Positions 3,201-64,000 of a stretch of 64,000 bases of DNA are shown here, piece by piece. Positions within the stretch are counted from its first letter, which is position 1, and each line of letters begins with the position of its first letter. The notes below the pieces were generated by a model. It did not search any database. It was not told the DNA's origin and worked only from the letters and a program-made list of their open reading frames with translations. The translations under genes and the position numbers were made by a program. The DNA is from an uncultured Chloroflexia bacterium (GTDB lineage: Bacteria; Chloroflexota; Chloroflexia; QHBQ01; JADMIH01), in assembly GCA_963797095.1 (NCBI GenBank), contig CAWCNY010000003.1, positions 512,001 to 576,000 of the forward strand, written 5' to 3'.

Positions 3201-6200
3201 CACCACCACCAATGGCAGCAAGTCGGTGCTTATCGAGGGCCAGGTGCAGGACCTGAGCAACCAGGCGGTTGCCAACAGCACCACAGTGGTGGTACACCAG
3301 GGCCTCTACTACATCGGCCTGCGCAACGAAGACTATATAGCGACCGCCAAAGTGCCAACCACCATCACAGTGCGTACGGTCGAGTGGTCGGGCAAAGCGA
3401 TCCAGCCGAACACCACAGTCAACCTGAAGTTCGTGCGACGCGAGTGGGTGGCCCCCACCGACCCGCAGGGCGAATGGAAGCTTAACGAGGTACCGGTGGG
3501 CAACACCACTGTCACCACCGACGCCAGTGGCCACGCCACCTACCTCTTCACGCCTCCCACGGCCGGCGAGTACGGCATCGAGGCCACCGGCACCGATGGC
3601 AGGGGCAACCTGATCCGCACCACCACCCAGTTCTACGCATCCGACAGCACGCCGGGCTACTACGTGCCGTGGCGCTATATGAACGACAACGCGGTGCAGT
3701 TGGTGGCTGACAAGACCCAGTACGAGGCCGGCGACACGGCTCATATACTCGTGACCTCGCCTTTCAGCGAGTCAACTGCCCTCCTCACCATAGAGCGCGG
3801 ACACCTGCGCCGCTACCAGGTGATCACCCTGGAGGGCACCGCTCCTACTATAGATGTGCCATTGCAGGATGGCGACCTGCCCAACGTCTACGTTGGCCTC
3901 ACGCTGCTTGGGCCGGGCAAAGCACCCGACGATGCGCCCAGGGGGTGGGTCAGCCAGGTCAACATGAGGCAGGGCTATGTCAATCTCTCGCTCGACACGT
4001 CGGGCAAAGAGTTGCAGGTAAGCGTGGAGCCTCAGGGCAACGGGCCTTTCCTGCCCGGCACCACCAACGCCGTGAAGATAACAACCACGGATAGCTCAGG
4101 CAAGCCGGTGCAGGGCGCGTTCTCGCTCGCTGTTGTGGACGAGGCGATCTATGCCCTGGAAGATGGCGGCACGCCCGGCCTGTTCAGCGACTTCTGGTCC
4201 GAGCGCGGGCTTGGAGTATCCACGTCCACTAGCTTCACAGCCGGAGATGTCTCGACTTACGGGCGGGGCGGAGGAGGCGATTTCTACAATGCGGGCGCTG
4301 TGCCATCGACGGCACCCGCTCCCACCACTGAGGATGCCTCCGCCGGAGCAAAGGACGGGGCAAGCGCTGCCCAGGCCCCTCAGAAGGTGAGAACAAACTT
4401 CCAGGACACTGCCTTCTGGATCGCTGAGGTGGCGACCGGCAGCGACGGCACGGCCACGGTGCAGGTGCCTTTCCCCGATAACCTGACCACCTGGCGGCTG
4501 ACCACTGCCGGGCTGACCAAAGATACATTGGCAGGCGGGGCCAGCGCGCCTATGACCGTCACTCAACCCCTCTTGTTGAGGCCGGTGCTGCCGCGCTTCC
4601 TGACCACGGGCGACAACCCTCAGCCGCAAGCTATCATCCACAACAACACAGGCAGCGACCTGGACCTGACGGTTAGCCTGGAGGTGAGCGGCTCAATCGC
4701 TCTAGAGAAGGGGCAAGCCGCCGACCAGAACATAACCGTCAAGACGGGCGAGCAAGGCGTGGTGACCTGGAAAGCCACCGTCGATAAGGGCGACACCGCC
4801 AGCTTCAGGTTCTGGGTGCGCACCACCAACAAGACCGGGGCCGACTACCACGAGGACGCGGTCGGCATGAGCCTGCCGGTCAAGCCGTTCGCCGCGCCGG
4901 AGGCGGTCGCCACCAGCGGCGAGGTGCAGGGGGTACACGGCTTCGAGGGAGTAATGATCCCCTACTCGGTCAACCCGCTGCTTGGAGACCTGACTGTGCA
5001 GGTGTCTCCTTCGCTGGCGGCGGCCACCATCGGCAGCCTGATCTACGTGAAAGAGTACGACTGGGAGAGCACCGACGCGACGGTGAGCCGCTTCCTGCCT
5101 TTGGTGGTGCTCGAAAAGGTGTATAACGAGCAGGGGCTGAAGACCCCCTACTCTCAGGACATACCGGGCATAGTGTCGAACGCCCTCAAGAGGCTGGCCG
5201 AGCTACAGCAGCCCGATGGCGGTTGGGCCTGGTGGGAGCGCGGACCTTCCAACTGGTTCGAGACGGCCTACGTGGTACAGGGCCTGAGCGCTCTGCACGA
5301 TGCGGGGTACAGCGTATCGACCGACATGGGGAGCATGTTCCAGCGCGGGCGCGACCGGTTGCAAAGCTTCCTGAGCGAGAACAGCACGAGCGGCATCGAC
5401 CAGACATACCATCTCGATATGAGGGCATACACGCTGTACGTGCTTGCCTATGCGAACGGCGCGCCACCGGAGAGCGAGGCGAGGGACCTGATCAACCAGA
5501 CCCCACGCCTGAGCGCGCACGCCCGCGCATGGCTGGCGATGGCGCTCGGCAAGATGGGCATGAGCGAGAGCAAGCAGGTGCTCGATAGCCTGGTGTCGGA
5601 GGCGCGACAGACAAGCACGCTGGCCCACTGGGAAGAAGGCACGCCCGACTACTGGAGCATGGGCACCGACAACCGCGCTACCGCGCTGGCAATCGACGCG
5701 CTGGTAACACTCCAGCCCGACGACCCGATAGTGCAGAAGGCGGTACGCTGGATTATGTCGGCTGAGCGCGAAGGGCACTGGCTCTCCACGCAGGAGACCA
5801 GCATAGTGCTGGTGGCGCTGGCCCACTACATGCAGCAGAGCAAAGAGCTTAGCGCCGACTATGTTTTCCAGGTGGACGCCTTCGGCAAGCTGCTTGGGCA
5901 GGGGCTCGCCAACTCCACCACCCTCACGCAGACGGCGACCTTCACGCTGCCTGTGTCCGACATGCCTGTGAACACGCTTGGCGATGTGAACCTGTCGCGT
6001 AGCAACGACAGCGGCAAGATGTACTACCAGATGTCGCTCAAGTACTACGTGCCGGGCGAGGGGATCAAGTCGCGCAGCGAGGGGCTGGCGATCAGCCGCA
6101 GCTACTACAAGATGACCGACGGGGTGGCGAGCGACCAACCTGTCACCGAGGCGCAGGCGGGCGACCTGCTGAAGGTGCGGCTGACCATCGTGGTGCCGGA

Positions 6201-49378: not shown

Positions 49379-50440
49379 TTGGAGAAAGAGAGGGAGAGAA
49401 CGGAGAGGACGCAGACCGTGAACACGGCGAATACGAACACGGTAAAGCCAGCAAGGGCAGCAAGGGCGACAGAACATCACATGTTGCTGGAAAGCTATCT
49501 ACGCCAGTTACGATTGCCCAGCTTCGTGCAACACTACCAGAAGTTGGCTCAAGATGCCGCACAGACCAACCTCAGCTATGAACGTTTTCTGTTAGCTCTG
49601 GCTGAAGGAGAGGTAGGCCAACGAGAAGTGCATCGAGTGGAACGCTCTATCGCCTCCGCCAAATTCCCGGTGCTCAAAGAGCTTGCTGACTTCGATTTCA
49701 GTGTCGTGCAGGGTTTAGCCAAGACGAGGGTACTTGAACTGGCTCAGGGTGGGTACATTCAGAGGGCAGAGCCGATCCTTTTGGTTGGCAATCCAGGGCT
49801 TGGCAAGACCCATATTGCCACAAGTCTTGCCCTTGCGGCTTGCCGTCAGGGCCATCATGTGCGCTTCTACAACGTAGCAGGCTTAATCAATGATATGATC
49901 CAGGCACAACAGGAGCTGCGATTGTCCCGTTTCATGACACAGATGTGCAAGCAGCAGGTGATTGTGCTGGACGAGCTAGGCTTCATACCATTTACAGCGG
50001 CGGGTGCGCAGTTGCTCTTCCAGTTCTGTTCGACCCTTTACGAGAGAGTGGCAATCATCATAACTACGAACCTGCGATTTGGAGATTGGAACAGTGTGTT
50101 AGGAGATGAGCGAATGACGGCTGCACTTTTGGACCGGCTCACGCACAAAGCACACATTCTGGAGTTTGTTGGAGAGTCGTTTCGTTTTCGCCAGCGTCTT
50201 CAACAGCAACAGGTGCAGGGGCAGGGGCAGGGGCGAAGTGAAAGAACAGGTGATGGTGCGAACGGGAATTTCGGGTACGGTTCTATTCAGAGTCTGGAGA
50301 GCCGAGAGATGGAAGGAGGGGAGGAAGACGAGGGGGCAGAAGCGGGGGAGATCGGGGAGAGCGGGGAGAGAAACGGGGAGAGCGGGGAGACAGAGGAAGC
50401 AGAACCGGCGCAAATGGCAAGCATCGCTGATCGGCCTTAG
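49379..50440 (+). CDS. istB: IS21 helper AAA+ ATPase IstB with acidic low-complexity tail
   Basis: GNPGLGKT, VLDELGF, ITTNL, ALLDRLTH, GESFR; TTG start after AGGAGG (ORF track starts at 49313). Confidence 0.95.
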   Translation: MEKERERTERTQTVNTANTNTVKPARAARATEHHMLLESYLRQLRLPSFVQHYQKLAQDAAQTNLSYERFLLALAEGEVGQREVHRVERSIASAKFPVLKELADFDFSVVQGLAKTRVLELAQGGYIQRAEPILLVGNPGLGKTHIATSLALAACRQGHHVRFYNVAGLINDMIQAQQELRLSRFMTQMCKQQVIVLDELGFIPFTAAGAQLLFQFCSTLYERVAIIITTNLRFGDWNSVLGDERMTAALLDRLTHKAHILEFVGESFRFRQRLQQQQVQGQGQGRSERTGDGANGNFGYGSIQSLESREMEGGEEDEGAEAGEIGESGERNGESGETEEAEPAQMASIADRP

Positions 50441-50481
50441 TTTTTTCGCAAAATTGACCTCAAAATGGCCGAAATTAAGTC

Positions 50482-50796
50482 ATGACCTCTAACTCCAGCT
50501 CTAACCCAAGCGCACTCCCAGCTAGCGAACCTGCCGTCGAACCGCCCTCGAAGGTGGTAACGACCTGCCGGGGCTACACACGAACCCTCCACGCTCAACT
50601 CGTTTCGTTCCGTTGCGAGTGGTGCAGCGAGGAGCGAGAGGTGTGGCAGTATCCAGGGGCAGCTCCGCGTTACTGCGATGGTTGCCGAAGGGAAGCCCAA
50701 AGGGCGATGAACACGGCGCGCCAGCGGGAGAAGCGCAAGCGAGACACTAGCCCCTACGGATGGCGACCACGGGTAGGACGGCCTCGCAAGCCTTGA
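50482..50796 (+). CDS. Small CxxC..CxxC zinc-binding protein with C-terminal AT-hook-like motif (IS21 passenger)
   Basis: CEWC-16 aa-CDGC, basic helix, GRPRKP; co-oriented 41 bp after istB. Confidence 0.65.
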   Translation: MTSNSSSNPSALPASEPAVEPPSKVVTTCRGYTRTLHAQLVSFRCEWCSEEREVWQYPGAAPRYCDGCRREAQRAMNTARQREKRKRDTSPYGWRPRVGRPRKP

Positions 50797-50907
50797 AATC
50801 GGTGAACTGAGCGTATCCTAATTGGCACACCGAGCCTTATTGCGTCTGGGTAAATGAGCAGGATGGTCCCTGTGCCTACTCTTCCGATGCCAAATGGCTA
50901 TAACCAT

Positions 50908-51444
50908 TCACTGTGATATCTCTAGCTTCAATATCACCGGATCCGAGGGATCGCCGTCTATGTGGGCATACCAAATCTTGACTTGTAGCCCCTCTTTCAT
51001 TGGCCCCCCAAGTGTACTTACATGGTGAAAGCCAAGGCTCTCGCTGTATTCGGAGTAACTAAACTGGACCCCTTGCACCCTAAAGCTCTCGGCCTTGCCA
51101 CTGGCCGTACTGGTTAGGTCTATTACTTGCCCCTCAGCAACCTGTGCCTGATTAGTGGCGAGCAAATCGCTGCCAGTATGATATGCGGAAAGCGTCGACG
51201 CAAAGAGGAAGATCGCAACGCACAAACCAGCACAGATCAGGGTTACAGATCCAGATATCCTTATGGCACTAGGTACCTTGGGTATGCGGCTGCGATTGAC
51301 CAATATTCCAACACCGACGAACGCAACCGCCAGAGGGATTATTACAACCCACCATGCAAACGATTGTTGCGAAGCGTCAAAGACCGTTCGATAAGCCACG
51401 ACCGTGCTGCGGTCCATGTTGTTCCAAATGTCGACTAAAGTCAT
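50908..51444 (-). CDS. Hypothetical two-TM membrane protein (IS21 passenger)
   Basis: 178-aa ORF with two TMs then an OB-like VAEGQV..ESFRVQGVQFSY..GLQVKIWY region; lies inside the IS21 ends. Confidence 0.7.
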   Translation of the reverse strand: MTLVDIWNNMDRSTVVAYRTVFDASQQSFAWWVVIIPLAVAFVGVGILVNRSRIPKVPSAIRISGSVTLICAGLCVAIFLFASTLSAYHTGSDLLATNQAQVAEGQVIDLTSTASGKAESFRVQGVQFSYSEYSESLGFHHVSTLGGPMKEGLQVKIWYAHIDGDPSDPVILKLEISQ

Positions 51445-51582
51445 GTCCGTGATGTCCCCACTAGACTTGCGATTTCCGTGTGGCCCCCTTTTCGATTATC
51501 AAATGGCTCCCTTTTTAATTATCAATATTTTCGTCGGGGAGGAGAAGTGGCTCCCTTTTTGGTTATCAAATGGCTCCCTTTT

Positions 51583-53079
51583 CTATTGACAAAAACATAG
51601 GTCATACAGATGCTCCTGAGCAACACCCGCCACAAACTGCTTATGCAGCCAATCCAGCAAGTGCCGCCGATGCACTCGCTGCATTTCTCGGCGCGCATCC
51701 CCGATGGTCACACGAACATGTTCAGTCTCGGTCGTGGTGGCCTGCAAACGGGCACGCTCCTCGTCCAAGAGCAGGTACGCCGCCAACACCAACGTCCAGA
51801 ACCGCTCGATAGCCGGGGCGCTCATCACTTGGTAGTGGTCAAGCCCCATCAACTCCTTGCAGTCGGCAAACAGCACCTCGATGTCCCAGCGTGCCGCTAC
51901 ATATTGCAGCAACTGCTCCACACTTGCCCCCAAGTCACTCGATGCCCAGTATCTGGTCTCGGACACAGGAGCACCCAGGCTGTGCCTCACTACCAGCACC
52001 TGGCACTTGTACAGCTTACGCACCATTGTGGTAATCGCATGCGCGTACACAGTGCTCACCTCCCCTTTGGCATCGGCATCGCGACCGCAACCGAGTTCGC
52101 TTCTGGGCCAGCGTACCAGCACGTAATCGGCCTCGCTCAAGCCCGCCACATATTCCGGCAGAGGCTGCCAACACCAGTCTGCAGCACTGGCGGCACTGGC
52201 GGCACTGGCGGCACTGGCGGCACTGGCGGCACTGGCGGCACTGGCGGCACTGGCGGCACTGGCGGCACTGGCGGCACTCGTACCGCCGACAAGCTGCTCT
52301 ACTCGGATGGAGCGATTGGCTTTCAGCCCACTGGTAATATGGAAGGCTCGCTGCCGAGCCGCCTTCCATACCGCCTTGCACCCAAACCAACTGTCCACCA
52401 GCACATGGGTGTCGGTCCCTTCCACCGGCTCGAAACTCTCAATCTGCTCCACCAGCAGGTCAACCTTGCTCTTGAAGGGCACACCCTCTCGCTCACAGAC
52501 CTCTCGCTGCCGATACAGACAAGGAGCCTGGGGACAGCACCTATCCAACGTAGGCAACACATACAGGGTGGTCAACATGTTGTGCCCTTGCACCGGGTGC
52601 CCCACCGTCGAGGAGAAGTGGCGGCCTATCCCAGCCATCTTGCGGCCTTTGGGCTTGTGCATGGTGGAGTCGTCTCCAATCAAGTAACCGGTCACAGAGG
52701 TTACACGAGCAGGAAGGCGACCCTTACGACCCCGACCGGTGTAGCGTCGGTGGTGACTACGCAAGGTGGCACGCTCTTGGGCTACCTGGGGGGCAAGTTG
52801 TGCTCGGAAACGGGCACACCAGGCAGCCACAACAGCCTGCCCTTCCCAAGGAGCGCGGCTCAAGAAGCGGCTCAGGCCACAGTAAGCGCGAGCGCGGGTG
52901 CGTACTCCGCCTCCGCACACAGCACGGTGCAGTCCACACAGGGTACGAGCTTCCATGCACAACAGCAAGGCCAGCAGTACGGTAACAAAGTACTGGAATT
53001 GAGGCTTGCTGAAGCAGTGACGGAAGGTCTGGGCGAAGTAGCGCACGCTCCCATCGGCGCATATAATGGGGGTAGGCAT
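51583..53079 (-). CDS. IS701-like DDE transposase containing an (SAA)x11 insertion; C-terminus altered by the IS21 insertion
   Basis: LIGDDS, VLVDSWF, RWDIEVLFADCKELMGL; GGAGG RBS before MPTPII. Confidence 0.88.
   Translation of the reverse strand: MPTPIICADGSVRYFAQTFRHCFSKPQFQYFVTVLLALLLCMEARTLCGLHRAVCGGGVRTRARAYCGLSRFLSRAPWEGQAVVAAWCARFRAQLAPQVAQERATLRSHHRRYTGRGRKGRLPARVTSVTGYLIGDDSTMHKPKGRKMAGIGRHFSSTVGHPVQGHNMLTTLYVLPTLDRCCPQAPCLYRQREVCEREGVPFKSKVDLLVEQIESFEPVEGTDTHVLVDSWFGCKAVWKAARQRAFHITSGLKANRSIRVEQLVGGTSAASAASAASAASAASAASAASAASAASAASAADWCWQPLPEYVAGLSEADYVLVRWPRSELGCGRDADAKGEVSTVYAHAITTMVRKLYKCQVLVVRHSLGAPVSETRYWASSDLGASVEQLLQYVAARWDIEVLFADCKELMGLDHYQVMSAPAIERFWTLVLAAYLLLDEERARLQATTTETEHVRVTIGDARREMQRVHRRHLLDWLHKQFVAGVAQEHLYDLCFCQ
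52181..52279. repeat. 9-bp tandem repeat (GGCGGCACT) x about 11, in frame
   Basis: Read directly; encodes SAA repeats on the minus strand. Confidence 0.95.
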
Positions 53080-53234
53080 AGTGGTCCTCCTCGGGTAAGG
53101 ATTGGTGTTCGCAACCCTCTTATACCCGATAGGCCCTATGCCTTCAATCATTCACTTTGAAATGTGCAAAGATAGAGTGATAATGTAAAAGGGGTGTACT
53201 GCGCCCTTGGTGTTGGACACAAATGGGGCTTAGG

Positions 53235-54240
53235 TTAGTCAATAGCCCCGACCGGCTGGGCTGACCGGCTAGCGGCGAGTGCGTCCTGGCTCCCCACGCC
53301 ACCACCCAGATATACCTGGTTGCAGCTCTGGTTGCGCTGAACCCACTGCGCCTCGAACTCAGCAGGGGTCATGTACCCCAGCGATGAGTGTATCCGCTTG
53401 TGCTGGTACACCTCGTCCAGGAACCGCCCGATCTGCTGGTAAGCATCATTGTAGTCGATGTATTCCGATAAATCTACCTCCTCTTCCTTGATGGTTCGAA
53501 TCACCCGTTCCGCGTACCCGTTCTGCCACGCCTGCCCCACCTCAGCCATGCTGATGGCAACTCCCGCTCCCACCAGCATCTGCACGTAGCCACCCGCCGC
53601 GTACTGTACTCCCTGGTCGGAGTGGTGGATTTGAGGAGTGCCAACGAGCAGTGCCCGCCGCAGTGCCGTTTCAGTAAGGTCAGCATCCAGCCACCGCGAG
53701 AGGTGCCACCCACGGATTGAGCGAGTGAACACATCCATGACCACAGCCAAGTAGACAAACTCGCTCCCGAGGCGCACGTAGGTGATGTCCCCGACCCAAA
53801 GCTGCTCTGGTCGCACCACCGCCAGCCCCTCTACCAGGTTGGGGTAGCGTGGGAACGAGTGGGCACTATTGGTCGTGCGCTTCTTACGGCGAGGGATGCG
53901 TCCTTGCAGGCCCATCTCACGCATCAACCGCCGCACTCGCTTGTGGTTGGCCCGAAGCTCGTACCCACCCGCTTCCTTGCTTCTGCGTAGCTGATGGGTG
54001 ATGCGCCTGTATCCATAGGTAGACCAGCGGTCAGCAACCGCTTGGATGGCCTCTTTTACCTCTTGGTCTGGCGCACTCTGGACCCGAGACGTGGTCTGAG
54101 CTTGAGTGTAATGGTAGTAGCTGCTGCGAGGGTAGTCCAGCAGACGGCAAACCAGCTGTACCGGGTAGCTCTCCTCTTGAACGAGCTTCACGACTGCCCG
54201 CCTTTTCTGCTCAGCTCTGCATTCAAGATCGCAGACCCCT
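53235..54240 (-). CDS. IS3 OrfB (integrase core), expressed via -1 frameshift
   Basis: YGYRRI, WVGDITY, HHSDQGVQY, NGYAER..RTIKEE, RIHSSLGY; A-AAA-AAG slippery site at 54239-54245. Confidence 0.92.
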
Positions 54241-54517
54241 TTTTTAGGATTTCCATCTCCAGAGTCATGCGTCCAACCAGCCTCTCCAACTCGGCTATCC
54301 GTTCTGCTTGTGGGTCGGCCACTCGTCCGGAAGGGCCGTTCTCGAAGAGCTTGGGGGCACTTGCCACGAAATCGGCTTTCCATCTGGACAGCAATTCGGG
54401 CTTGATGGAGTACTCGCGAGAGGCCTGAGCTACACTCTTGGCTCCTGTGAGGATTTCCAGCACTACCTGCGCTTTGAACTCGGCGCTGAAACTCCGCCGA
54501 TTTTGCATCTGAGGCAT
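54188..54517 (-). CDS. IS3 OrfA (HTH)
   Basis: RRSFSAEFKAQVVLE, LLSRWK, IAELERLVG..EILKK; AAGGAG RBS. Confidence 0.92.
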   Translation of the reverse strand: MPQMQNRRSFSAEFKAQVVLEILTGAKSVAQASREYSIKPELLSRWKADFVASAPKLFENGPSGRVADPQAERIAELERLVGRMTLEMEILKKGSAILNAELSRKGGQS

Positions 54518-55563
54518 CTTGTTGCGCTCCTTTCCGTTCTTGGACCATCATACGACATTGATTATCCGCTGTGTCCAAGTCCCGGGGCGCACTACAGAGG
54601 TAACTCCATCGAGTGGAGAGTTAGCCCTCTCCCAGTGGATTCTGTCCCACTGTCCCCACGTAAAAGGGTCTCTGACCCCGGCCACGCCAGTAGTAAGCAA
54701 TGAACCTGGTGGAATGCAGGCCACGCAAGCGCCGCTGACTGGTAGCCTAAACCTGGTCATGCGCAAGGGGAAGTCAGATAGGTCAACGCAAGTGAACTGC
54801 CATCTAAAGCTTCGTGATTCGGCAAGAGTGCAATAAGGCTGAGACACTCTCACCAAAATGGTAAGTGGGTGGTCGAGCAAATCCAGTCGCTGCTCGACGA
54901 CAGGACACACTCCCACCGGAGCATAGGCAGGACCTTCCCTGGACGCATCTCAACACCTGGAACTACGGTAAGCCCGTTGAGTTCTCCACTTGGCATGCGG
55001 AGTAAGCCGACCGTAAGGAAGGCAGAATTACTCATCGGGTAAAAGACGCTGGAGCAAGCGAAGGCCCGCAGTAATGCGCGGGATAGGGGTTCTTTTCAAG
55101 ATTTGCCCCACGCCGAAAGGCGGCTGACTTCCAGCTAGCTTCTGACGATAGAACTAATGTGAAGGAACCAAACTGACGTGCAAGATAGAGTCACTTCTGA
55201 CATCGGAACGCCAGGATCTGCTTTCAGCGAGATACCCAAACAAGGCACTCCCATTGATTGGGACGCTATTGACTGGGCTATTGTTAACAATCGGGTCAGG
55301 AACCTGAGACAAAGGATTTATCGTGCGACCGCAGCGGGTCAGTGGAATCAGGTGCGCAGCCTGAAGAAGCTGATGATGCGCAGCTACGCAAACCTGCTAC
55401 TGTCAACGCGAAGAGTGACCATGGACAATCACGGCAAGAAAACGGCTGGCATTGATGGTCAGACTGCTCTTACCGCCAAAACCAGGACGCAAGTGATCCG
55501 CGAGATGCCGGAGTACAAACCACGACAGGTCAAACCAGCCCGGCGGATATATATACCTAAGGC

Positions 55564-57039
55564 TATTGGTGACAAGTTAAGGTAATCACAGGGATGTCAA
55601 ACAGCAGATTGAGCATGAGAAGCACGACAACGACGTTTCTGCTTGAGCAGGTCAAGGTCCTTGGCCTTGCGAGCCAGGTAGTCTACCACATCAAGCTCCA
55701 GGGTAGGGTCTCGCCCTTGCTCTCGCAGACGTTGACAGGCTTGCGTGTAATGGTACAATGCCCGGAACACCATCTCCAACGATATTGCCTTGAATGGCTG
55801 CCTTACCGCCTCAGCCACTGCGTCGGTGAGGTCCACCAGCACCGCATACAGTATCCAGGTGGCCCATACCTGCACCTGCACGGCGTTGGACGCTCCACAC
55901 CAGAAGTAGGCCAGTCCCAGCAGACGCTTGACGATGTTGAAGGCATCTTCCATGCGCCACCGCTCAGCATACAACGCCGCCACCTGCTCAGCCGGCAATC
56001 TGTGGGGGTCGGTCACGTTGGTCAGGTAGCGGTACCACTTGCCTTTCACCGATATTTCCACTACCCGCATCGGGTGAGCACAGCGTGTGGTGCCCTGACC
56101 CAACACCACTTCATAGTCGTGTATGCTGTCCGTCTGTTGCAGCACCCGCACCACTTGTATGGCCGCATTCGCCTTGAGAGGGGTCAGCATACTCACTCCT
56201 CGCTCGGTGAGGCGGTCGAAGAAGGTGTAGTTGACAAAGCCCATGTCAAACAAGGCCAACAGCCCACTCTCCAACGTCTCGATGATCCCGTCCCAGAAGA
56301 GTTGGTCGTGCGCCGCACTATCCGGTTCATAAATGATGTGCACAGGCAAGCGAGAACACAGGTCGAGCACCCCCGCGATGCGCCCACCCAACAGGGCCGA
56401 GTGCTTGTCAGGGAGCTCTTGCAGCAGACCCACTTTACGCAGCAAAGTGTCAAGGGTGGACCCATCGAAAGCCACCACACCCGTGTAATGCCCCTTGGCC
56501 CAGGTGAGCACGCTTGGCAAGGGGCGCACTCGAGCGTGCCAGCGGTCATGCATGAGGGGCAGCACATCCAGGAGCACCTGCCTGAACAGCGAGGCGGGCA
56601 TAGTCCTCAGACGCTGGTTTACAGCTTGTTGCGACACCGACACAGGAGGCACCCACAGTACTCCATCTTCATGCAGTACCCTCACGGCTTCTCGCACCGA
56701 GCCGATCTGACGCCAGATCATGCTCAACGCGAAGGCCATCATCACCGGCAAAGTCAGGATGCGGTGGCGCAAGCCCATGACCTGATAGGCAGCTATCTGG
56801 GCATAGGTAGCAGGGTGGATAAGTTCAGTCAGCCTCTGCTCCACTGCAGCGGCAGGCGGTCCCACAGTAGGACGCTTGGAGCGGTCCCGCTGTATAGCGC
56901 GAGTATGGCGGACGCTGCTGTTCTTTGGTTTGGAAGGGTTGGAAGATGTGCTCATGCATGATTCTACCCAACCTCTCGACCCAAATCCAGCAGCAAAACA
57001 GCTTGACATCATGCACATGACCTTAACTTGTCACCAATA
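55564..57039 (-). mobile_element. IS4-family element, 9-bp TSD ACCTAAGGC
   Basis: 19-bp perfect IRs TATTGGTGACAAGTTAAGG; TSD at 55555-55563 and 57040-57048. Confidence 0.95.
55597..56955 (-). CDS. IS4-family transposase
   Basis: AFDGSTL, LFDMGF, YLTN, YREK-type YAERWRMEDAFNIVK (ORF track starts at 57018). Confidence 0.92.
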   Translation of the reverse strand: MSTSSNPSKPKNSSVRHTRAIQRDRSKRPTVGPPAAAVEQRLTELIHPATYAQIAAYQVMGLRHRILTLPVMMAFALSMIWRQIGSVREAVRVLHEDGVLWVPPVSVSQQAVNQRLRTMPASLFRQVLLDVLPLMHDRWHARVRPLPSVLTWAKGHYTGVVAFDGSTLDTLLRKVGLLQELPDKHSALLGGRIAGVLDLCSRLPVHIIYEPDSAAHDQLFWDGIIETLESGLLALFDMGFVNYTFFDRLTERGVSMLTPLKANAAIQVVRVLQQTDSIHDYEVVLGQGTTRCAHPMRVVEISVKGKWYRYLTNVTDPHRLPAEQVAALYAERWRMEDAFNIVKRLLGLAYFWCGASNAVQVQVWATWILYAVLVDLTDAVAEAVRQPFKAISLEMVFRALYHYTQACQRLREQGRDPTLELDVVDYLARKAKDLDLLKQKRRCRASHAQSAV

Positions 57040-57574
57040 ACCTAAGGCCAATGGCAAACAAAGGCCGATCGGCATCCAAACTCTCAAAGACCGCATCGCG
57101 CAGGCAGTTATCAAGAACGCACTGGAACCAAGTTGGGAGGCCCAATTCGAGCCGAACAGCTATGGCTTTCGTCCGGGCCGCAATTGTCATGATGCCATCG
57201 TGCAATGCTGGAACTGGTTTAAGGGCGCAAACGGACACAGCTTTGTGCTCGACGCCGATATCCGGGGTGCGTTCGACAATATCAGTCAGGAATATATCCT
57301 CGACGCCATTGGCCAAACGCCGGGACGCGAGTGGATAGAAGCATGGCTGAAGGCAGGCTATGTAGAGGCCGAGATCTTCCACGCCACTGAGAGTGGTACC
57401 TCACAAGGCTCTGTCGTCTCACCATTACTCGCCAACATTGCCTTGGACGGTATGGAACGCTGGCTTGGTCAATGGACTAACCAGCGAACTTACACCAACA
57501 AGCGCGGCAAACAGGTGGGATGTGTACATAAACAGGCTAATCCACGCTACGGTTACATCCGTTTTGCGGACGAC

Positions 57575-60081
57575 GTGCGCCACATAACCAAGATAATGGA
57601 TTCCTTTCGCAGAAAGGGGAGGTACGGAAGACAAGACCTCCGGGTCAACAGCTTACCTGGAAGCGAAAGCTGAAGGGAACAGTAGCATGCTGCTGAAGCG
57701 GAAGATACTTGAAGATGCTTAGGGTATCGTTCTGCAAGACCCGCGTGATATGGTGAGAGCCAAACTGCCCAAACCTTAGTCTCCAGCGATGCAAGCGAAT
57801 ATTCTCCGACCATAGCATCTATTGGCGGAGCCATTGTGATAGGGCGGTTAAGTCGTCGCCGCCTGAACCTTTCGCACAATGGGCGGTCAGGAACGACCTG
57901 ACTCAAGGAGACGGAACAGGCACCTACGTCACGCTCGATACGTCCATAACCTTGGGAATGTGGGATCGCCTACAGGGCGCGAGCCCCATGGCGACGGAGC
58001 CACCATATTACTCCGAGGACGGGAAAGCCGTCTACATGGCAACATAGCAACATAGCAACATAGCAACATGGCAATGCCTTGCAAAGAAGATAAGTTGCCA
58101 ATGGGGAAGGGTGGCAGGTGTTGTGAGACCCAATCAGGGAGGTACGCGAGATGCGAAACGCCGAAACTGTGCTGGGGATCATCCATGAACGCGGCAAGAA
58201 GGGCTTGCCATTGGAGGACGTGTACCGGCAACTGTTCAACCCAGACTTGTATCTACTCGCTTATGGGCATATCTACCGCAATAACGGGGCTATGACACCT
58301 GGCGTAACAGACGAAACTGTGGATGGGATGTCGCTGGCCAAGATCGAAGCCATCATCGGTGCACTACGACAGGAACGATATCGATGGACGCCAGTACGAC
58401 GCGTGTACATCGCCAAGAGAAACTCGACCAAAAGGCGTGGGCTAGGAATCCCTTCTTGGTCGGATAAGCTGTTGCAAGAAGTGATACGCCTTATCCTACA
58501 GGCATATTACGAACCGCAATTCAGCCCGGCCTCACACGGCTTTCGCCCTCAACGTGGGTGTCACACCGCGCTAAGCGAGATCCAACATAAGTGGGTAGGC
58601 ACAAAATGGTGGGTGGAAGGCGATATCAGAGCGTGCTTCGACACTCTGGACCACACAGTCCTGATATCAATCCTACGCGAGAAGATCTTCGACAATCGCT
58701 TCTTACGCTTGATCGAACGCCTCCTGCAAGCCGGATACCTGGAAGAATGGCGTTATCACTGCACCCTGAGTGGAAGCCCACAAGGTGCCGTGCTCAGCCC
58801 CGTTCTTTCGAACATCTACATGGACAAGTTGGACCAGTTTGTCGAGAAGACACTGCTTCCCAGGTACACGTGCGGAAACCGTCGTAGACTTAATCCTGAA
58901 TGGCAACGGCGACAACAGCTTGCTCGGCAATTGAAGGAACATGGTGACAAGAAAGAGGCCTGCAAAATGCGTCGTCTGATGCAGCAGGTCCCCTCCTTGG
59001 ACACACACGACCCCAACTACCGACGCCTGCGTTACTGTCGTTACGCCGATGATTGGCTACTCGGTTTCAGCGGCCCACGAGAAGAAGCCCAGGAAATCAA
59101 GTCTGCAATCCGGGACTTCTTACGAGAGGATCTCAAGTTGGAACTCTCTGAGGAAAAGACGCTGATTACCCATGCGCGGACCAAAGCTGCGCATTTCCTG
59201 GGCTATGATATCGTGGTGCTCAATAACGACCACAAGCTGGATCGCCGAGGTCACCGCAGCATCAACGGCGGGATCGGACTGAAAGTACCAGCAGAGGTTG
59301 TGAAAGTGAAATGCAAACGCTATCTGCGCCACGCCAAACCGATCCACCGACCGGAACTTGAACACGATGCTGTCTTCAGTATCGTGGCACAATACCAGCA
59401 GGAGTACCGGGGTCTCGTGGAATACTATCGACTGGCCTTCAACCTTCACAAACTCAACCAACTGAAATGGCTAATGGAACGCTCCCTGGCACAGACACTG
59501 GCCTCAAAACTCAAGATCAGTGTCCGATCTATCTACAAGCGATACCACACCTTAGTACGGACAGATCAGGGAACACGTGCAATCCTCGAAGTCAGGGTAG
59601 AGCGTGATGAGGGCGATCGTGATAAGGGCGATAAAGGAAGAAAACCGTTGATAGCGCGGTGGGGCGGTATTTCACTCGCACGCAACTCCAAGGCAATACT
59701 GAACGACGCGCCCCTACAAATCAGCGGACCGAGAGCGGAACTCGAACGACGCCTCTTGGCACAAGCTTGTGAGCTTTGTGGTTCACGAGAAAACATCGAG
59801 GTGCATCATGTACGAGCACTCAAAGATCTACGGACCAAAGGACGCGCAGAACCGCCTTTCTGGATGCAGGTGATGGCAGCTCGCAAGCGCAAGACGCTGG
59901 TGGTCTGTCGCGAGTGCCACGATAGCATTCATGCTGGTCGCAACACTCAAACTGCTGCCGTGAAAGCCGCGAGAAGGAAAACACTGGAGAGCCGGGTACT
60001 CCGAAAGGCGTAAGCCCGGTTCGGGGAGAGGCGGACAGAAAAGAGCTGCGCAAGCAGCACCTCGCTGGCCGCCCACTCCAC
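57575..60081 (+). mobile_element. Group II intron (inner; ML-class/IIA-like), apparently complete; forms a twintron
   Basis: 5' GTGCG; domain V GAGCCGGGTACTCCGAAAGGCGTAAGCCCGGTTC near 59989; ends CCCACTCCAC; precise removal restores RFADD|FIIT. Confidence 0.95.
58151..60013 (+). CDS. Inner intron-encoded RT/maturase/HNH endonuclease (LtrA-like)
   Basis: GAMTPG, LGIPSWSDKLLQE, SHGFRP, EGDIRACFD, PQGAVLSP, RYADD, FLGY, CELC..EVHH..CRECH. Confidence 0.95.
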   Translation: MRNAETVLGIIHERGKKGLPLEDVYRQLFNPDLYLLAYGHIYRNNGAMTPGVTDETVDGMSLAKIEAIIGALRQERYRWTPVRRVYIAKRNSTKRRGLGIPSWSDKLLQEVIRLILQAYYEPQFSPASHGFRPQRGCHTALSEIQHKWVGTKWWVEGDIRACFDTLDHTVLISILREKIFDNRFLRLIERLLQAGYLEEWRYHCTLSGSPQGAVLSPVLSNIYMDKLDQFVEKTLLPRYTCGNRRRLNPEWQRRQQLARQLKEHGDKKEACKMRRLMQQVPSLDTHDPNYRRLRYCRYADDWLLGFSGPREEAQEIKSAIRDFLREDLKLELSEEKTLITHARTKAAHFLGYDIVVLNNDHKLDRRGHRSINGGIGLKVPAEVVKVKCKRYLRHAKPIHRPELEHDAVFSIVAQYQQEYRGLVEYYRLAFNLHKLNQLKWLMERSLAQTLASKLKISVRSIYKRYHTLVRTDQGTRAILEVRVERDEGDRDKGDKGRKPLIARWGGISLARNSKAILNDAPLQISGPRAELERRLLAQACELCGSRENIEVHHVRALKDLRTKGRAEPPFWMQVMAARKRKTLVVCRECHDSIHAGRNTQTAAVKAARRKTLESRVLRKA

Positions 60082-61606
60082 TTCATCATAACAGCAGCCA
60101 CGAGGGAGGAAATCGAGGCTATTCAACCTCATGTGGTAGCCTGGCTGGCCGAGCGCGGACTCGAACTCAACACCGAGAAAACCCATATCCGCAACATTGC
60201 AGATGGTTTCGACTTCTTGGGTTTCAACATCCGTCGCTACGGCACGAAATGCCTAATCAAGCCCCAGAAGGAAAAGGTGCAGACCAAACTGCGTGAAATC
60301 AAGCAGTGGCTGGTCACGCATCCGAACGTTGGTCCCGACGACGTGATTGACGTGCTAAACCCGATTCTGAGGGGTTGGGCGAACTACTACAAGCATGGGG
60401 TGAGCAAGAAGATGTTCGCCACCTTCAGCCACCGGTTAGTGTTACTACTTATCCGATGGGCGAGACGGCGACACCCGGGTAAGGGTCCACGGTGGGTACT
60501 TCCGCGTTACTTCACGAGAGTAGGCGGGAACAACTGGGTCTTCTACGCCAAGACAAAGAACCGGCACGGTAAGATGACGAAGACCTATCTGTATCGGATA
60601 GGGCAGACGCCAATTACTCGCCACATCAAAGTCAAAGGCGCAGCATCCCCAGACGACCCAACGCTGGGCGAATACTGGGCGGCACGGCAGACAAGATATG
60701 GCAAAAGCTATTTTGCTGTGGGGTCAAAGCTATACCGGGTAGCCGCAAAGCAGCACTGGCGATGTCCCCTGTGCCGAATGCACTTGTTCAATGAAGAGCG
60801 TATTCATATTCACCATGAGCAATCGGTAGCAGACGGTGGAACAGATGAGGAGGAAAACCTCAGCATCTTACACGAAGTCTGCCACCGCGCAACATTTGGT
60901 AGAAGACCCGCAGTAAAGTCGGTGGAAGCCTGAGCCGGATGATCGGCGACGGTCTTGTCCGGTTCTGTGAGGAGGGAGGCGGGGCGACCCGCTCTCCCTT
61001 ACTCGATAAGTACCTGCTCTGCCTTGAACTGACCGACCCTGGTTTTGACCATACCGTGTTCAGCGAGTTTCGCACTCGCCTGTTGGATCACAACGCTGAG
61101 CGCCAACTGTTCGACACCATGCTTGCACTCGCTCAAGACCGGGGTCTGCTCAAAGCCGGTGGCCGTCAGCGCAGCGACTTAACTCATGTCCTAAGTGCTG
61201 CACGCACCCTCAACCGGCTGGAATGTGTTACCGAAACCCTACGTCACGCCCTCAATGTGCTAGCGACCTCCGTCCCGCAGTGGCTACGAGCACACACTAC
61301 ACCAGAGTGGGTGGAGCGCTATGGCTTACGTGCCAGTGAATTTCGGCTGCCCAAAGGCGATGCCAAACGGCTGGCGTGGGTTGAGCAAGTTGGGCGCGAT
61401 GGGATGGCCTTGCTCGATGCCATCTACGCAGCAGACCCGGCAGACCCGGCAGACCCGGCAAATGGTCCAACTCCAGCCTCTTTGCGCGAGGTGCGGGGTC
61501 TTGAGTAGGTGCAGATACTGCGCCGGGTTTGGATCCAGAAGTTCTGGATGAACCAGGATCAATTGCAATGGCGCGACAACGACAACACCCCACCAAGCGG
61601 CACTTA

Positions 61607-62893
61607 GGAGCCTTCCGCAGATAAGGTGATCAAAGTAGCTGAGGCTTGATAGTGTAGTTCCATTCCCCGTGGAAGGCATCTTTGAACAGATTGAGGGCAG
61701 CCACTTGCTCATCAGTGACCTTGATCCCTGTCGGATATGCATGGCTGTCCTTGAGCGCCCTCACCACTAACCCCTCTTGGGTGGTAGTATGCGAGATCAG
61801 TTCCAACACCACTTCCATAGACGTGAGCGGGGTGGCCCGCCAATTTATTGATATGTACGAAAACACTCGATGCTCTATCTTGTTCCATTTGCTGGTAGCA
61901 GGGGGATAATGCGCCACCGTGATGGCCAGTTGTTCTTCATTGGCCAGTGCCTGTAGCTTTTGCTTCCACAGGCGGTTTCTCACCCCATTGGAGCCTCCTC
62001 CATCAGCGGTGATCAGCAGTTCCTTTTTGCCTGGATAGAGGGTTTTGCCCCACTTCTGCCACCACCTGCGGATACTCTCCACCGCAAACTCAGCCGTATC
62101 ATGGTCAATACCCACATTCACAAACCCCACGTTCACAAACCCCACGTTATGCACCAGGTCATATATCCCGTAGGGGATGGCCTTGCCATCGGCCAGGGAA
62201 ACAAAGTCATACACCGATACCACCCTCTCTTCCCCTTGAGCCTGCCATTCCCGTCCGTTGTTCCTGAACTGGCCTATCAACTCCTTCTTCTTGCAGTCAA
62301 CGGAGATGATAGGAGCGCCTTTGTGTTCAAACTCTTTGCACCGAGCGTTGATGTGAGTAAATTGCTCATCCCGGTCAGGGTGCGATTGGCCTTCGATATT
62401 CTTCTTGTTGACGCGCAGAGAAAATCTCTGCTCGTGCAGCAATTCGGCCAGTGCTGACTTCTTGATGTGATGCCCTTTGCCTTCAAGGGCTTGCACCAGG
62501 TGTGCCAACGATTTGGTGGTCCATCGTACAAGGCTCATCGGGTCACCCTTGGGTTCCAATTCCCTCTCCAGATCGGGGAGCAGGGTGGGATCGGTCTGTG
62601 CAAGCTTTTTCATGCCCCCACCAGGCTTGCGGATGCGTTCTCCTGGTTGATAGTTGTCCCCTGCCTCCCGTTCTTTCAGACCCCGCTTGACCGTGTTGAG
62701 GGAGACCCCTGCCTCCCGAGCTACTGTGCTGGTGCTTCCTCTGCGTTGAGCCTCGGCTGCCAGGTACTGTCTCCACTGCTTCTCATTTAGCAGTGTCCGA
62801 AGCTGTTGGTATTCTTGTTCGGTCGAGAGCTTTTCCATACTCTCTATCTTCGCATATCTCCCTCTCTATGTCAACTAATTCTCGGAAGGCTCC
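61607..62893 (-). mobile_element. ISAzo13-family element, 3-bp TSD TTA
   Basis: IRs GGAGCCTTCCG / CGGAAGGCTCC; removal restores PSGT|YINSPYD of the IS1182 transposase. Confidence 0.92.
61630..62838 (-). CDS. ISAzo13 transposase
   Basis: GDPMSLVRWTTKS, ISVDCKKKE, ITADGGGSNG, HYPPATSKWNKIEHR, FHGEWNY. Confidence 0.95.
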   Translation of the reverse strand: MEKLSTEQEYQQLRTLLNEKQWRQYLAAEAQRRGSTSTVAREAGVSLNTVKRGLKEREAGDNYQPGERIRKPGGGMKKLAQTDPTLLPDLERELEPKGDPMSLVRWTTKSLAHLVQALEGKGHHIKKSALAELLHEQRFSLRVNKKNIEGQSHPDRDEQFTHINARCKEFEHKGAPIISVDCKKKELIGQFRNNGREWQAQGEERVVSVYDFVSLADGKAIPYGIYDLVHNVGFVNVGFVNVGIDHDTAEFAVESIRRWWQKWGKTLYPGKKELLITADGGGSNGVRNRLWKQKLQALANEEQLAITVAHYPPATSKWNKIEHRVFSYISINWRATPLTSMEVVLELISHTTTQEGLVVRALKDSHAYPTGIKVTDEQVAALNLFKDAFHGEWNYTIKPQLL

Positions 62894-64000
62894 TTACATC
62901 AACTCGCCTTATGACATTGATATACGCTACGCTCACAAAGGCTCCATCACCTGGACCGGCTTCAAGGTGCATCTGACCGAGACTTGTGACGATGAAGGAC
63001 CAAACTTGATTACCAACGTTGAAACCACTTCGGCCTCAGTAGCGGATGACGCTGTAACCGGGTCAATTCATGCTTCTTTGGCTGAGCACCAGTTGCTACC
63101 CGACAAGCATGTCGCCGACACGGGGTTCGTCAATTCGAAGCTGTTCGTCGAGAGTACACAAGAATACGGCATCACCCGGATCGGTCCGATGCGCTCTGAC
63201 AACAATTGGCAGGCTAAAGAAGGAGGCGGTTTCTCGGCACAGGACTTTGTGATTGATTGGGCGCAACAACGAGCCATCTGTCCACAAGGCCAAGTCAGCA
63301 GCAGTTGGACCAAAGCACTAGACCGTGTGAAGAACGAGGTCATCAAGATCAAGTTTGGCAAGCACGAATGTGGGGTCTGTCCGAGCGTAGCAAGATGCAC
63401 GCGATCAGACCCGCCGCGACGAAGCATCAGTATCAGACCGCAAGCGCAGCACGAGGCATTGGTGGCTGGACGGCGACATGAACAAAGTGAGGAATTCAAG
63501 CAAGAATATGCGCGACGGGCGGGGGTAGAAGGGACAATTGCGCAAGGGGTGCGGTCGTGCGGGCTGCGTGGTTCGCGCTACTATGGATTGGCAAAGAACC
63601 ATCTACAACACCTGATGATAGCGGCGGGAATAAACCTGATAAGGATTGTACGCTGGCTCATGGGCGAGGAGAAGGCCAAAACTCCTGTGTCTGCGTTCGC
63701 ACGTTTGTATCAGCAGGCCGCATGATCACTATTCGCCACCAATATCAAAGTGCGGATGAACCCCTTTCCCCTTTTTCGTTATCAAATGGCTCCCTTTTCT
63801 ATTGACAAAATCACCAGTTCAGCGAAGAGCAGATAATTGGGATCCTGCGGGAAGCCGAGGCAGGTCAGAAAGTGGCCGATGTCTGCCGCAAGTACGGAGT
63901 AAGCCAGAGCACCTTCCAGAGGTGGCGGCCCATCCTCTGTAAGGGCACTGCGTACCGCCAGACAGTAACCAAGGATCGCCTTTCCCAAGTCCTGGGCCTC

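Follow-up and report, generated by a model that had tools for sequence, protein, structure and literature searches.

An LtrA-like group II intron in the catalytic codons of another group II intron's reverse transcriptase gene: a probable case of codon-targeted homing

Homing of group II introns to the codons of the RYADD catalytic motif of reverse transcriptase (RT) genes was reportedly described already by Dai and Zimmerly in 2003, as others cite them. The introns named as specific to these codons are M.a.I5 (Methanosarcina acetivorans), UA.I3, P.l.I2 (Photorhabdus luminescens) and B.th.I3 (Bacillus thuringiensis), with B.th.I3 lying at the RYADD codons of a retron-like RT (Tourasse & Kolsto 2008, PMC2504315). 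Both of their intron-binding sites (IBS1 and IBS2) are placed within the RYADD codons, and twintrons result; the introns share 58-67% sequence identity, belong to the B-like RNA class, are about 1.8 kb long, lack an endonuclease (En) and are presumed to use replication forks (PMC2504315). Other twintrons occupy other sites: domain I in Trichodesmium (PMC4649490), domain IV in Porphyridium (PMC4476101) and, in Thermosynechococcus elongatus, where TeI3 is inserted in TeI4, a position between the first two ATGs of the open reading frame (ORF), the inner intron being ORF-less and of the host's own family (Mohr et al. 2010, PMC2882425). Introns of class IIA recognise their targets through two exon-binding sites (EBS1 and EBS2) and the delta position (PMC3898094). 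Here we analyse a group II intron that lies inside the RT gene of a second, outer group II intron on a 64,000-nt stretch of DNA (the window; positions 512,001 to 576,000 of contig CAWCNY010000003.1, assembly GCA_963797095.1) from an uncultured Chloroflexia bacterium.

The inner element is very probably an intact and recently mobile LtrA-like group II intron of class IIA, that is, of the mitochondrial-like (ML) class, whose lineage homes to the motif-5 catalytic codons of the RT genes of other group II introns.

The inner intron and its relatives

The inner intron occupies 57575..60081 on the plus strand (2,507 nt, GTGCG...CAC), as delimited by the sequence itself, by the Rfam domain V/VI match at its 3' end and by a near-identical copy on contig C2 of the same genome. 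Its ends fit the pattern of mobile group II introns (5' GUGYG, 3' AY), with GTGCG at 57575 and AC at 60081. The interrupted reading frame is I-R-F-A-D-D / F-I-I-T: the 5' exon ends in the FADD codons of the outer RT, TTT GCG GAC GAC (57563..57574, plus strand), and the frame resumes after the intron with TTC ATC ATA. Domains V and VI (59987..60081, plus strand) match Rfam family RF00029 with 54.5 bits against a gathering score of 40, whereas the Rfam families for D1-D4 gave no match within 54500-58200 even at E-values up to 1. An RNAalifold consensus of eight sequences contains 145 pairs, 49 of them with compensatory changes.

The intron-encoded protein (IEP; 58151..60013, plus strand) is an intact product of 620 amino acids with RT, maturase X, D and HNH endonuclease domains (Pfam RVT_1, Intron_maturas2 and an AI2M-like HNH match at 1.3e-16). 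Residues 24-593 align with LtrA of the Lactococcus intron Ll.LtrB (5g2x_C) at E 5.6e-121; against TIGR04416 the protein scores 258 bits, under the curated cut-off of 300. The LtrA-type IEP with D and En domains is joined by RNA features of the IIA/ML class, namely an EBS1 in a terminal loop and a delta directly 5' of it that pairs with the first base of the 3' exon. By homology to Ll.LtrB, retrohoming would proceed by reverse splicing with En-primed reverse transcription. These properties bear on the possibility that the inner intron is just another member of the described RYADD-homing lineage (M.a.I5, UA.I3, P.l.I2, B.th.I3). That lineage has the same target motif and the same twintron outcome (PMC2504315), but its members are B-like, about 1.8 kb long and without endonuclease, whereas the inner intron is 2.5 kb long, carries an AI2M-like HNH domain and aligns with LtrA from end to end. 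Membership in that lineage is therefore very improbable, the two being set apart by their descriptions. In the domain IV leader of the inner intron, the octamer GCAACATA stands in tandem at 58041-58072, in three full copies followed by a variant; this stretch corresponds to an insertion missing from the cyanobacterial relatives (alignment columns 478-542).

The close relatives of the inner intron share its insertion site. In the same genome, another RT gene is interrupted at R-Y-A-D-D / F-V-V by a relative with 69% DNA identity (L003, C3:115831-118378), of which L004 is a truncated copy. Among 39 loci obtained by scanning species-representative genomes, six with a full-length domain I match (254-287 bits, the next best scoring 162 bits) were kept; all six are cyanobacterial and lie at YADD / of RT genes with differing downstream sequences. 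The genome-derived elements, that is, the window copy, L003 and these six, are thus found at (Y/F)ADD / of diverse RT genes in 8 of 8 cases, and the introns of the relatives measure 2,405-2,548 nt. In the metagenome set, 80 loci were kept, 14 of them with at least 68% protein identity. Nine of these 14 have a readable 5' junction and all nine end in GAY GAY /, whereas the remaining five are cut on the 5' side; four of the five run on into GIIM or TIGR04416 RT sequence, and the fifth shows seven codons only. The survey of insertion sites among close homologues, which the earlier note had proposed as a check, accordingly returned one and the same codon boundary of RT genes, to the nucleotide, in 17 of 17 readable 5' junctions of the two sets. 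None of the other scanned loci was classed at an ADD site. The ADD-site introns form one clade in a tree of 27 IEPs (IQ-TREE, 100/100) and a clade of 19 rows in a tree of 105 IEPs (FastTree, local support 100).

In view of this recurrence, it is hardly credible that the insertion lacks a programmed specificity for RT codons and arose as a one-off ectopic event, or because mobile DNA of all kinds accumulates in a safe place. The window is certainly a heap of nested elements, comprising an IS1182-like gene, the outer intron and IS3-like, IS4-like and ISAzo13-type insertion sequences (IS), and group II introns often sit in other mobile DNA (PMC7306698). A chance insertion, however, would not account for an identical boundary in RT genes that differ widely downstream, nor for the EBS covariation described below.

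The earlier note considered that such an intron could in principle hit other RT classes, which the survey does not support: the typed RT hosts all fit group II RT/maturase models, and no retron-type or defence-type RT host was seen. In two loci (L085 and L086), the host group II-type RT reads YCDD, and the EBS2 is altered and one base longer. A search of the same phylum with the domain I DNA matched 29 of 401 genomes (the window's own counted) and returned only relatives at unrelated sites with different EBS. One locus (L011) was considered as a counter-example and set aside: its loop contains GUCGUC, but in a shifted register (exon ...GA / CG...), and its host gene does not encode an RT. A partial locus with 71% identity (L045) is uninformative, being truncated at the 5' side by an IS and cut at the contig end.

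Several loci deserve separate mention. In L039, a further domain V/VI (2255-2354; 59.3 bits) ends in the host RT gene just upstream of the SPLLANIALHG motif, so that, in addition to the intron at the YADD site, a third one seems to be present in this host, in RT motif 4. The L079 locus joins a 5' exon that is a CL-like RT (chloroplast-like; 860-1690) up to YADD to a 3' exon (4100-4207, FLLGVVGP...) that resembles the LtrA-like IEP family. It is either a chimeric metagenome assembly over a repeated intron or a recombination of two twintrons, and gives a hint that hosts may include ML-type RTs in which the motif reads YADDF. An IS3-family transposase gene (...DWHSR / YIVSW...) harbours an ORF-less relative (L005, G000:C6 about 301500-302215, minus strand) whose EBS1 loop does not clearly match the exon. 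As a contrast group, nine relatives, mostly from Clostridia (L015, L017, L018, L019, L021, L023, L026, L031 and L043), are all inserted at one site (...DNMLKI / T.DG...) of a conserved gene and group together with 100/99 support, which represents ordinary site-specific homing.

Guide sequences and target choice

Within the FADD codons of the window, IBS2 is TTTGC (57563-57567) and IBS1 is GACGAC (57569-57574, the two Asp codons), the two being separated by an unpaired G, the third base of the Ala codon, at 57568. The delta' position is the TT at 60082..60083 (plus strand), with which the Phe codon following FADD begins. On the intron side, EBS2 is GCGAA (57795..57799, plus strand). EBS1 is GTCGTC (57852-57857), in a hairpin at 57842..57864 (plus strand) with the stem 57842-57848 / 57858-57864 and the loop UAAGUCGUC, and delta is the AA at 57850-57851 of the same loop. 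The exon-binding sites, the hairpin and delta had been proposed in the earlier note from the window alone, as had the insertion at TTT GCG GAC GAC / TTC. The insertion site can be read directly from the sequence; the EBS1 hairpin is borne out by RNAalifold and by covariation over 17 elements, and GCGAA likewise covaries and pairs with UUUGC, while the AA pairs with the TT of the 3' exon in the manner of a IIA-type delta. The guide matches are weak when taken from the window sequence by itself, because GTCGTC occurs twice in the inner intron against an expectation of 0.46 and GCGAA three times against 3.8, but comparison with the relatives raises them above chance.

For this comparison, the 5' exon and domain I of 17 elements were aligned, and 18 pairs (EBS2-IBS2, EBS1-IBS1 and the hairpin stem) were scored, giving 306 cells. 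Of these cells, 96.7% are paired, and 12 of the 18 pairs show compensatory change: changes on both sides were seen in 4 of 5 EBS2 pairs, 3 of 6 EBS1 pairs and 5 of 7 stem pairs. In the RNAalifold model, GUCGUC belongs to a 9-nt terminal loop that caps a stem showing compensatory changes. In the pair table of the 17 elements, positions -8 and -9 of EBS2 are invariant G-C and C-G; -10 is G-U in seven elements, G-C in six, A-U in one and unpaired in one; -11 is U-A in 12, G-C in one, U-G in one and A-U in the window alone; and -12 is A-U in 14 and U-A in one. Position -7 is unpaired, with all four bases occurring. Within EBS1, position -4 is G-U in 11 elements, G-C in five and unpaired in one, and -1 is G-C in 12, A-U in two and G-U in three. 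Delta at +1 is A-U in 13 of 17 elements, a compensatory C-G in L082, a wobble in two and unpaired in one. The register of Ll.LtrB, with pairing at -12 to -8, -6 to -1 and +1, is the same. In more distant relatives, which occupy unrelated sites, the corresponding loops are complementary to the exons of each element: EBS1 matches at six of six bases in L053, L059, L060, L067, L012 and L014, and EBS2 at five of five in L053, L055 and L012.

The guides of the window copy appear to have followed a change of host codon. Its EBS2, GCGAA, stands against GCGUA in 12 of the 15 scorable elements and pairs with UUUGC rather than with UAYGC, the U-to-A change corresponding to a host Tyr (UAY) turned Phe (UUU). 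The guide sets of the other introns have at least one mismatch on the window site, and the window set has one on every YADD site. The window copy has probably shifted to a FADD host through a single change in EBS2.

In the recognition mechanism that we propose, EBS2 (GCGUA, or GCGAA in the window) would pair with -12 to -8, covering the Tyr or Phe codon and reaching to the second base of the Ala codon; the two Asp codons, -6 to -1, would be bound by EBS1 (GUCGUC or AUCGUC); and delta (A, often AA) would pair with +1 and +2, the TT of a Phe or Leu codon. At -7, where the Ala codon has its four-fold degenerate third base, no pair would form, and the pyrimidine third bases at -10, -4 and -1 would mostly face a G, which pairs with C or U, so that synonymous variants of the motif would stay targets. 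The inner intron is presumably able to splice, and any selective reason for its choice of target is likewise presumptive.

Several points weigh against this account or limit it. No shuffle out of 500 reaches the observed pairing values, and slid controls pair at 17-59%, but the shuffle figures overstate independence, because the 17 elements are related to one another and also supplied the structure that was tested. Codon degeneracy tolerated by design is a reading of the pair table, selection not being demonstrated. Three members of the clade depart from the simple rule. One (L094) lies in a DDE_Tnp_1_4 transposase gene, with guides that are new and match the site (EBS2 UAGUG, EBS1 AGUGUC); another (L087) lies at ...ACC GCA GAC GAC / GTC in a gene without a Pfam or NCBIfam match, again with a new and matching EBS2, GCGGU; and the third (L132), internally deleted to 1,771 nt, has an RT 3' exon but a 5' junction that is not at ADD. 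Among the elements with scored pairing, L089 has two mismatches to its site and L032 a delta mismatch. Finally, two non-RT sites of this genome, C2:79131 and C6:632755, match at the base-paired positions, including the TT, and are nevertheless empty. Pairing alone therefore does not define the target, and protein contacts probably matter too. The genome-wide scan of such sites, with RT context assigned by eye, finds an intron at three of three RT sites followed by TT and at none of nine followed by other bases, four of the nine being the parasites' own.

These occupancy figures also lend themselves to the proposal, made in the earlier note, that the intron is kept out of its own RT gene by sequence, its own YADD and the next codon pairing too poorly with EBS and delta. 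The own catalytic codons named in that note are indeed present, TAC GCC GAT GAT at 59042-59053, followed by TGG (to 59056). In six of the eight genome-derived elements, the own site shows two G-U wobbles in EBS1 and a mismatch at +2, and the codon after the own YADD is TGG in 20 and GTG in two of the 22 clade members with a readable motif, never TTN. However, occupied sites tolerate each of the proposed mismatches: L080 occupies GATGAT with the EBS1 GUCGUC, hence with two wobbles, and L090 occupies ADD / TG, the same +1 and +2 bases as those of a TGG codon. The own Asp codons vary over the clade (GATGAT, GATGAC and GACGAT), and, delta aside, the own sites of L040 and L003i pair with EBS1 and EBS2 as well as or better than their host sites. 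A Trp after YADD is also common outside the clade (35 counted), including relatives that target domain V, so it either predates the RT-codon habit or is unrelated to it. Any discrimination may lie in protein contacts instead, and sequence-level self-avoidance, as the note had it, we regard as unlikely.

In a separate observation, five further RT genes of this genome with YADD followed by CT, TG or GA are intron-free at that point (G000 C1:429453, C1:29339, C1:30565, C2:711868 and C5:311489).

The host intron and introns that target introns

The outer intron resembles the CL type of class IIB, in contrast to its LtrA-like ML/IIA parasite; the C-terminal half of its RT is nearest, among solved structures, to the TeI4h RT (6me0_C, 7.4e-57). 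Its 5' part (54597..55569, plus strand), identified by BLAST against the C2 and C4 copies and by Pfam RVT_N, holds the N-terminal part of the outer RT ORF, from 55178. The ORF is split twice in the window, by an IS with a DDE_Tnp_1 transposase and then again by the inner intron. The IS spans 55570..57039 (transposase at 55597-57018, minus strand); bases 55555-55569 are repeated at 57040-57054, and a second copy of this IS lies at C1:260369-261857. The middle part of the ORF (57040..57574, plus strand; Pfam RVT_1 and TIGR04416) ends in FADD. The 3' part of the outer intron (60082..61007, plus strand; Pfam and comparison with the C2 copy) contains the rest of the ORF, FIITAA... with GIIM and HNH domains and a stop at 60933, and ends in domains V-VI (60930-61007, plus strand; Rfam). 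It is followed by the 3' exon (61008..61508, plus strand), an IS1182-like transposase gene (DUF772; Pfam), the 5' exon, ...RSRIDW, being known from the C2 and C4 copies. The first 27 nt or so of the outer intron, and its 5' exon, were not found in window positions 50000-64000. Instead, the end of an IS3-like element (53235..54597, minus strand; other copies at C1:435270-435467 and C3:4370-4567) adjoins the truncated 5' end of the intron. With its 5' end missing and two IS insertions, the window copy of the host intron is dead.

An intact twintron is present on contig C2 (about 822379-827331, minus strand), also in an IS1182-like transposase gene, and begins with GTGCGAC after the 5' exon ...RSRIDW; the third host copy, on C4, is truncated. 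Comparison of the C2 twintron with that of the window shows one difference in the 2,507 bases of the inner intron, none in the 1,461 outer-intron bases 3' of the IS site and four in the 973 bases of the outer 5' part, two of them at the IS junction. The 3' exons, in contrast, are only 66% identical (73 of 216 bases differ), and identity falls from 100% exactly at 61007/61008. Since near-identical twintrons stand in diverged 3' exons, a diverged transposase paralogue has recently received either the composite as a whole or its two parts one after the other.

The inner intron sits in the ORF loop of domain IV of its CL/IIB-type host, and host RT synthesis would accordingly need its prior splicing. 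The earlier note had expected such a dependence in the window. There the question is moot, because the two IS elements and the missing first 27 nt or so already break the host, but the expectation holds up for the C2 copy, in which in silico removal of the inner intron leaves a 592-codon frame open through FADDF.

The surroundings form a nest of several levels at 53235-63725. The IS1182-like gene is divided into a DUF772 part (60939-61508) and a C-terminal DDE part (62793-63725) by the outer intron and by an ISAzo13-type IS at 61630-62838 on the minus strand, and the outer intron itself was struck by the IS3-like element, an IS4-like element and the inner intron.

Introns within introns recur among the more distant relatives. 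Many of those with 50-63% IEP identity interrupt domain V of a different group II intron, the insertion point lying 1-2 nt 3' of the GNRA tetraloop. Thirteen loci have both junctions in domain V: in five of them (L012, L014, L016, L029 and L035), the joined flanks fold canonically, and the other eight (L099, L102, L106, L109, L111, L136, L140 and L144) were judged by eye. About eight further loci have one domain V junction; those named are L047, L048, L104, L022, L097, L098, L110, L112, L117 and L139. The label of L022 in the tree of 27 IEPs comes from its 3' exon only, the 5' junction not being collinear, with an inverted junction upstream. The domain-V-site introns fall into three separate parts of the tree of 105 IEPs, and the phrase "inserted into domain V" did not occur in the literature found. 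Two more loci, L151 (1419-3812) and L150 (3' junction at 2627), are inserted at RT motif 3, ...LDIEKC / FDRINH..., of CL-type group II RT genes in which the YADD downstream is intact.

Taken together, it is possible, though we propose this only tentatively, that LtrA-like (ML/IIA, endonuclease-bearing) introns, separately from the En-less RYADD lineage, diversified into a guild that hunts other group II introns, with subclades homing to three invariant catalytic elements: the RT motif-5 codons, the RT motif-3 codons KC / FD (L150 and L151) and the distal stem of domain V (at least three subclades). The motif-5 guides would then fit the codon structure, with G opposite the two-fold wobble bases, the four-fold base passed over and one guide change accompanying a Tyr-to-Phe host.

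Significance and comparison with described systems

Independence of the lineage would mean that retroelements evolved on at least two occasions to parasitise just that part of a rival's gene which is unable to mutate away, a clear case of convergent hyperparasitism. The elements also provide natural covariation data on how IIA guides deal with codon degeneracy, including a one-base retargeting, with a bearing on targetron design. Twintrons of this kind split RT genes and conceal the outer intron from annotation pipelines; the authors of one pipeline report missing such an outer intron (PMC8919778). Since the window holds a dead copy, the intact C2 twintron is the copy worth study.

Compared with the T. 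elongatus twintrons, the present case is similar in its conserved site within another intron, in the near-identical inner copies and in a host ORF that was also struck by an IS, and here, as there, both composite and separate mobility have been considered. It differs in having an inner intron that codes for an IEP of 620 aa and is placed at motif 5. With Ll.LtrB and LtrA of Lactococcus lactis, the inner intron shares full-length IEP homology and target recognition by EBS1, EBS2 and delta; however, Ll.LtrB resides in a relaxase gene, whereas the present lineage resides in the RT genes of other introns.

The RYADD-homing introns are the nearest parallel in habit. A search of the literature found RYADD homing described in one paper (PMC2504315) and no ML-class or En-bearing lineage with that habit. 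As in the RYADD lineage, the inner intron lies at the catalytic-motif codons of an RT and forms a twintron. Unlike that lineage, going by its description, the present one is LtrA-like, 2.4-2.5 kb long, equipped with D and En domains and paired by delta-delta' at +1. The hosts differ too, B.th.I3 occupying a retron-like RT whereas the typed RT hosts of the present lineage are all group II RTs. The homing strategy is thus already known, but the lineage and its mobility apparatus differ, which makes the intron described here a second, apparently independent case.

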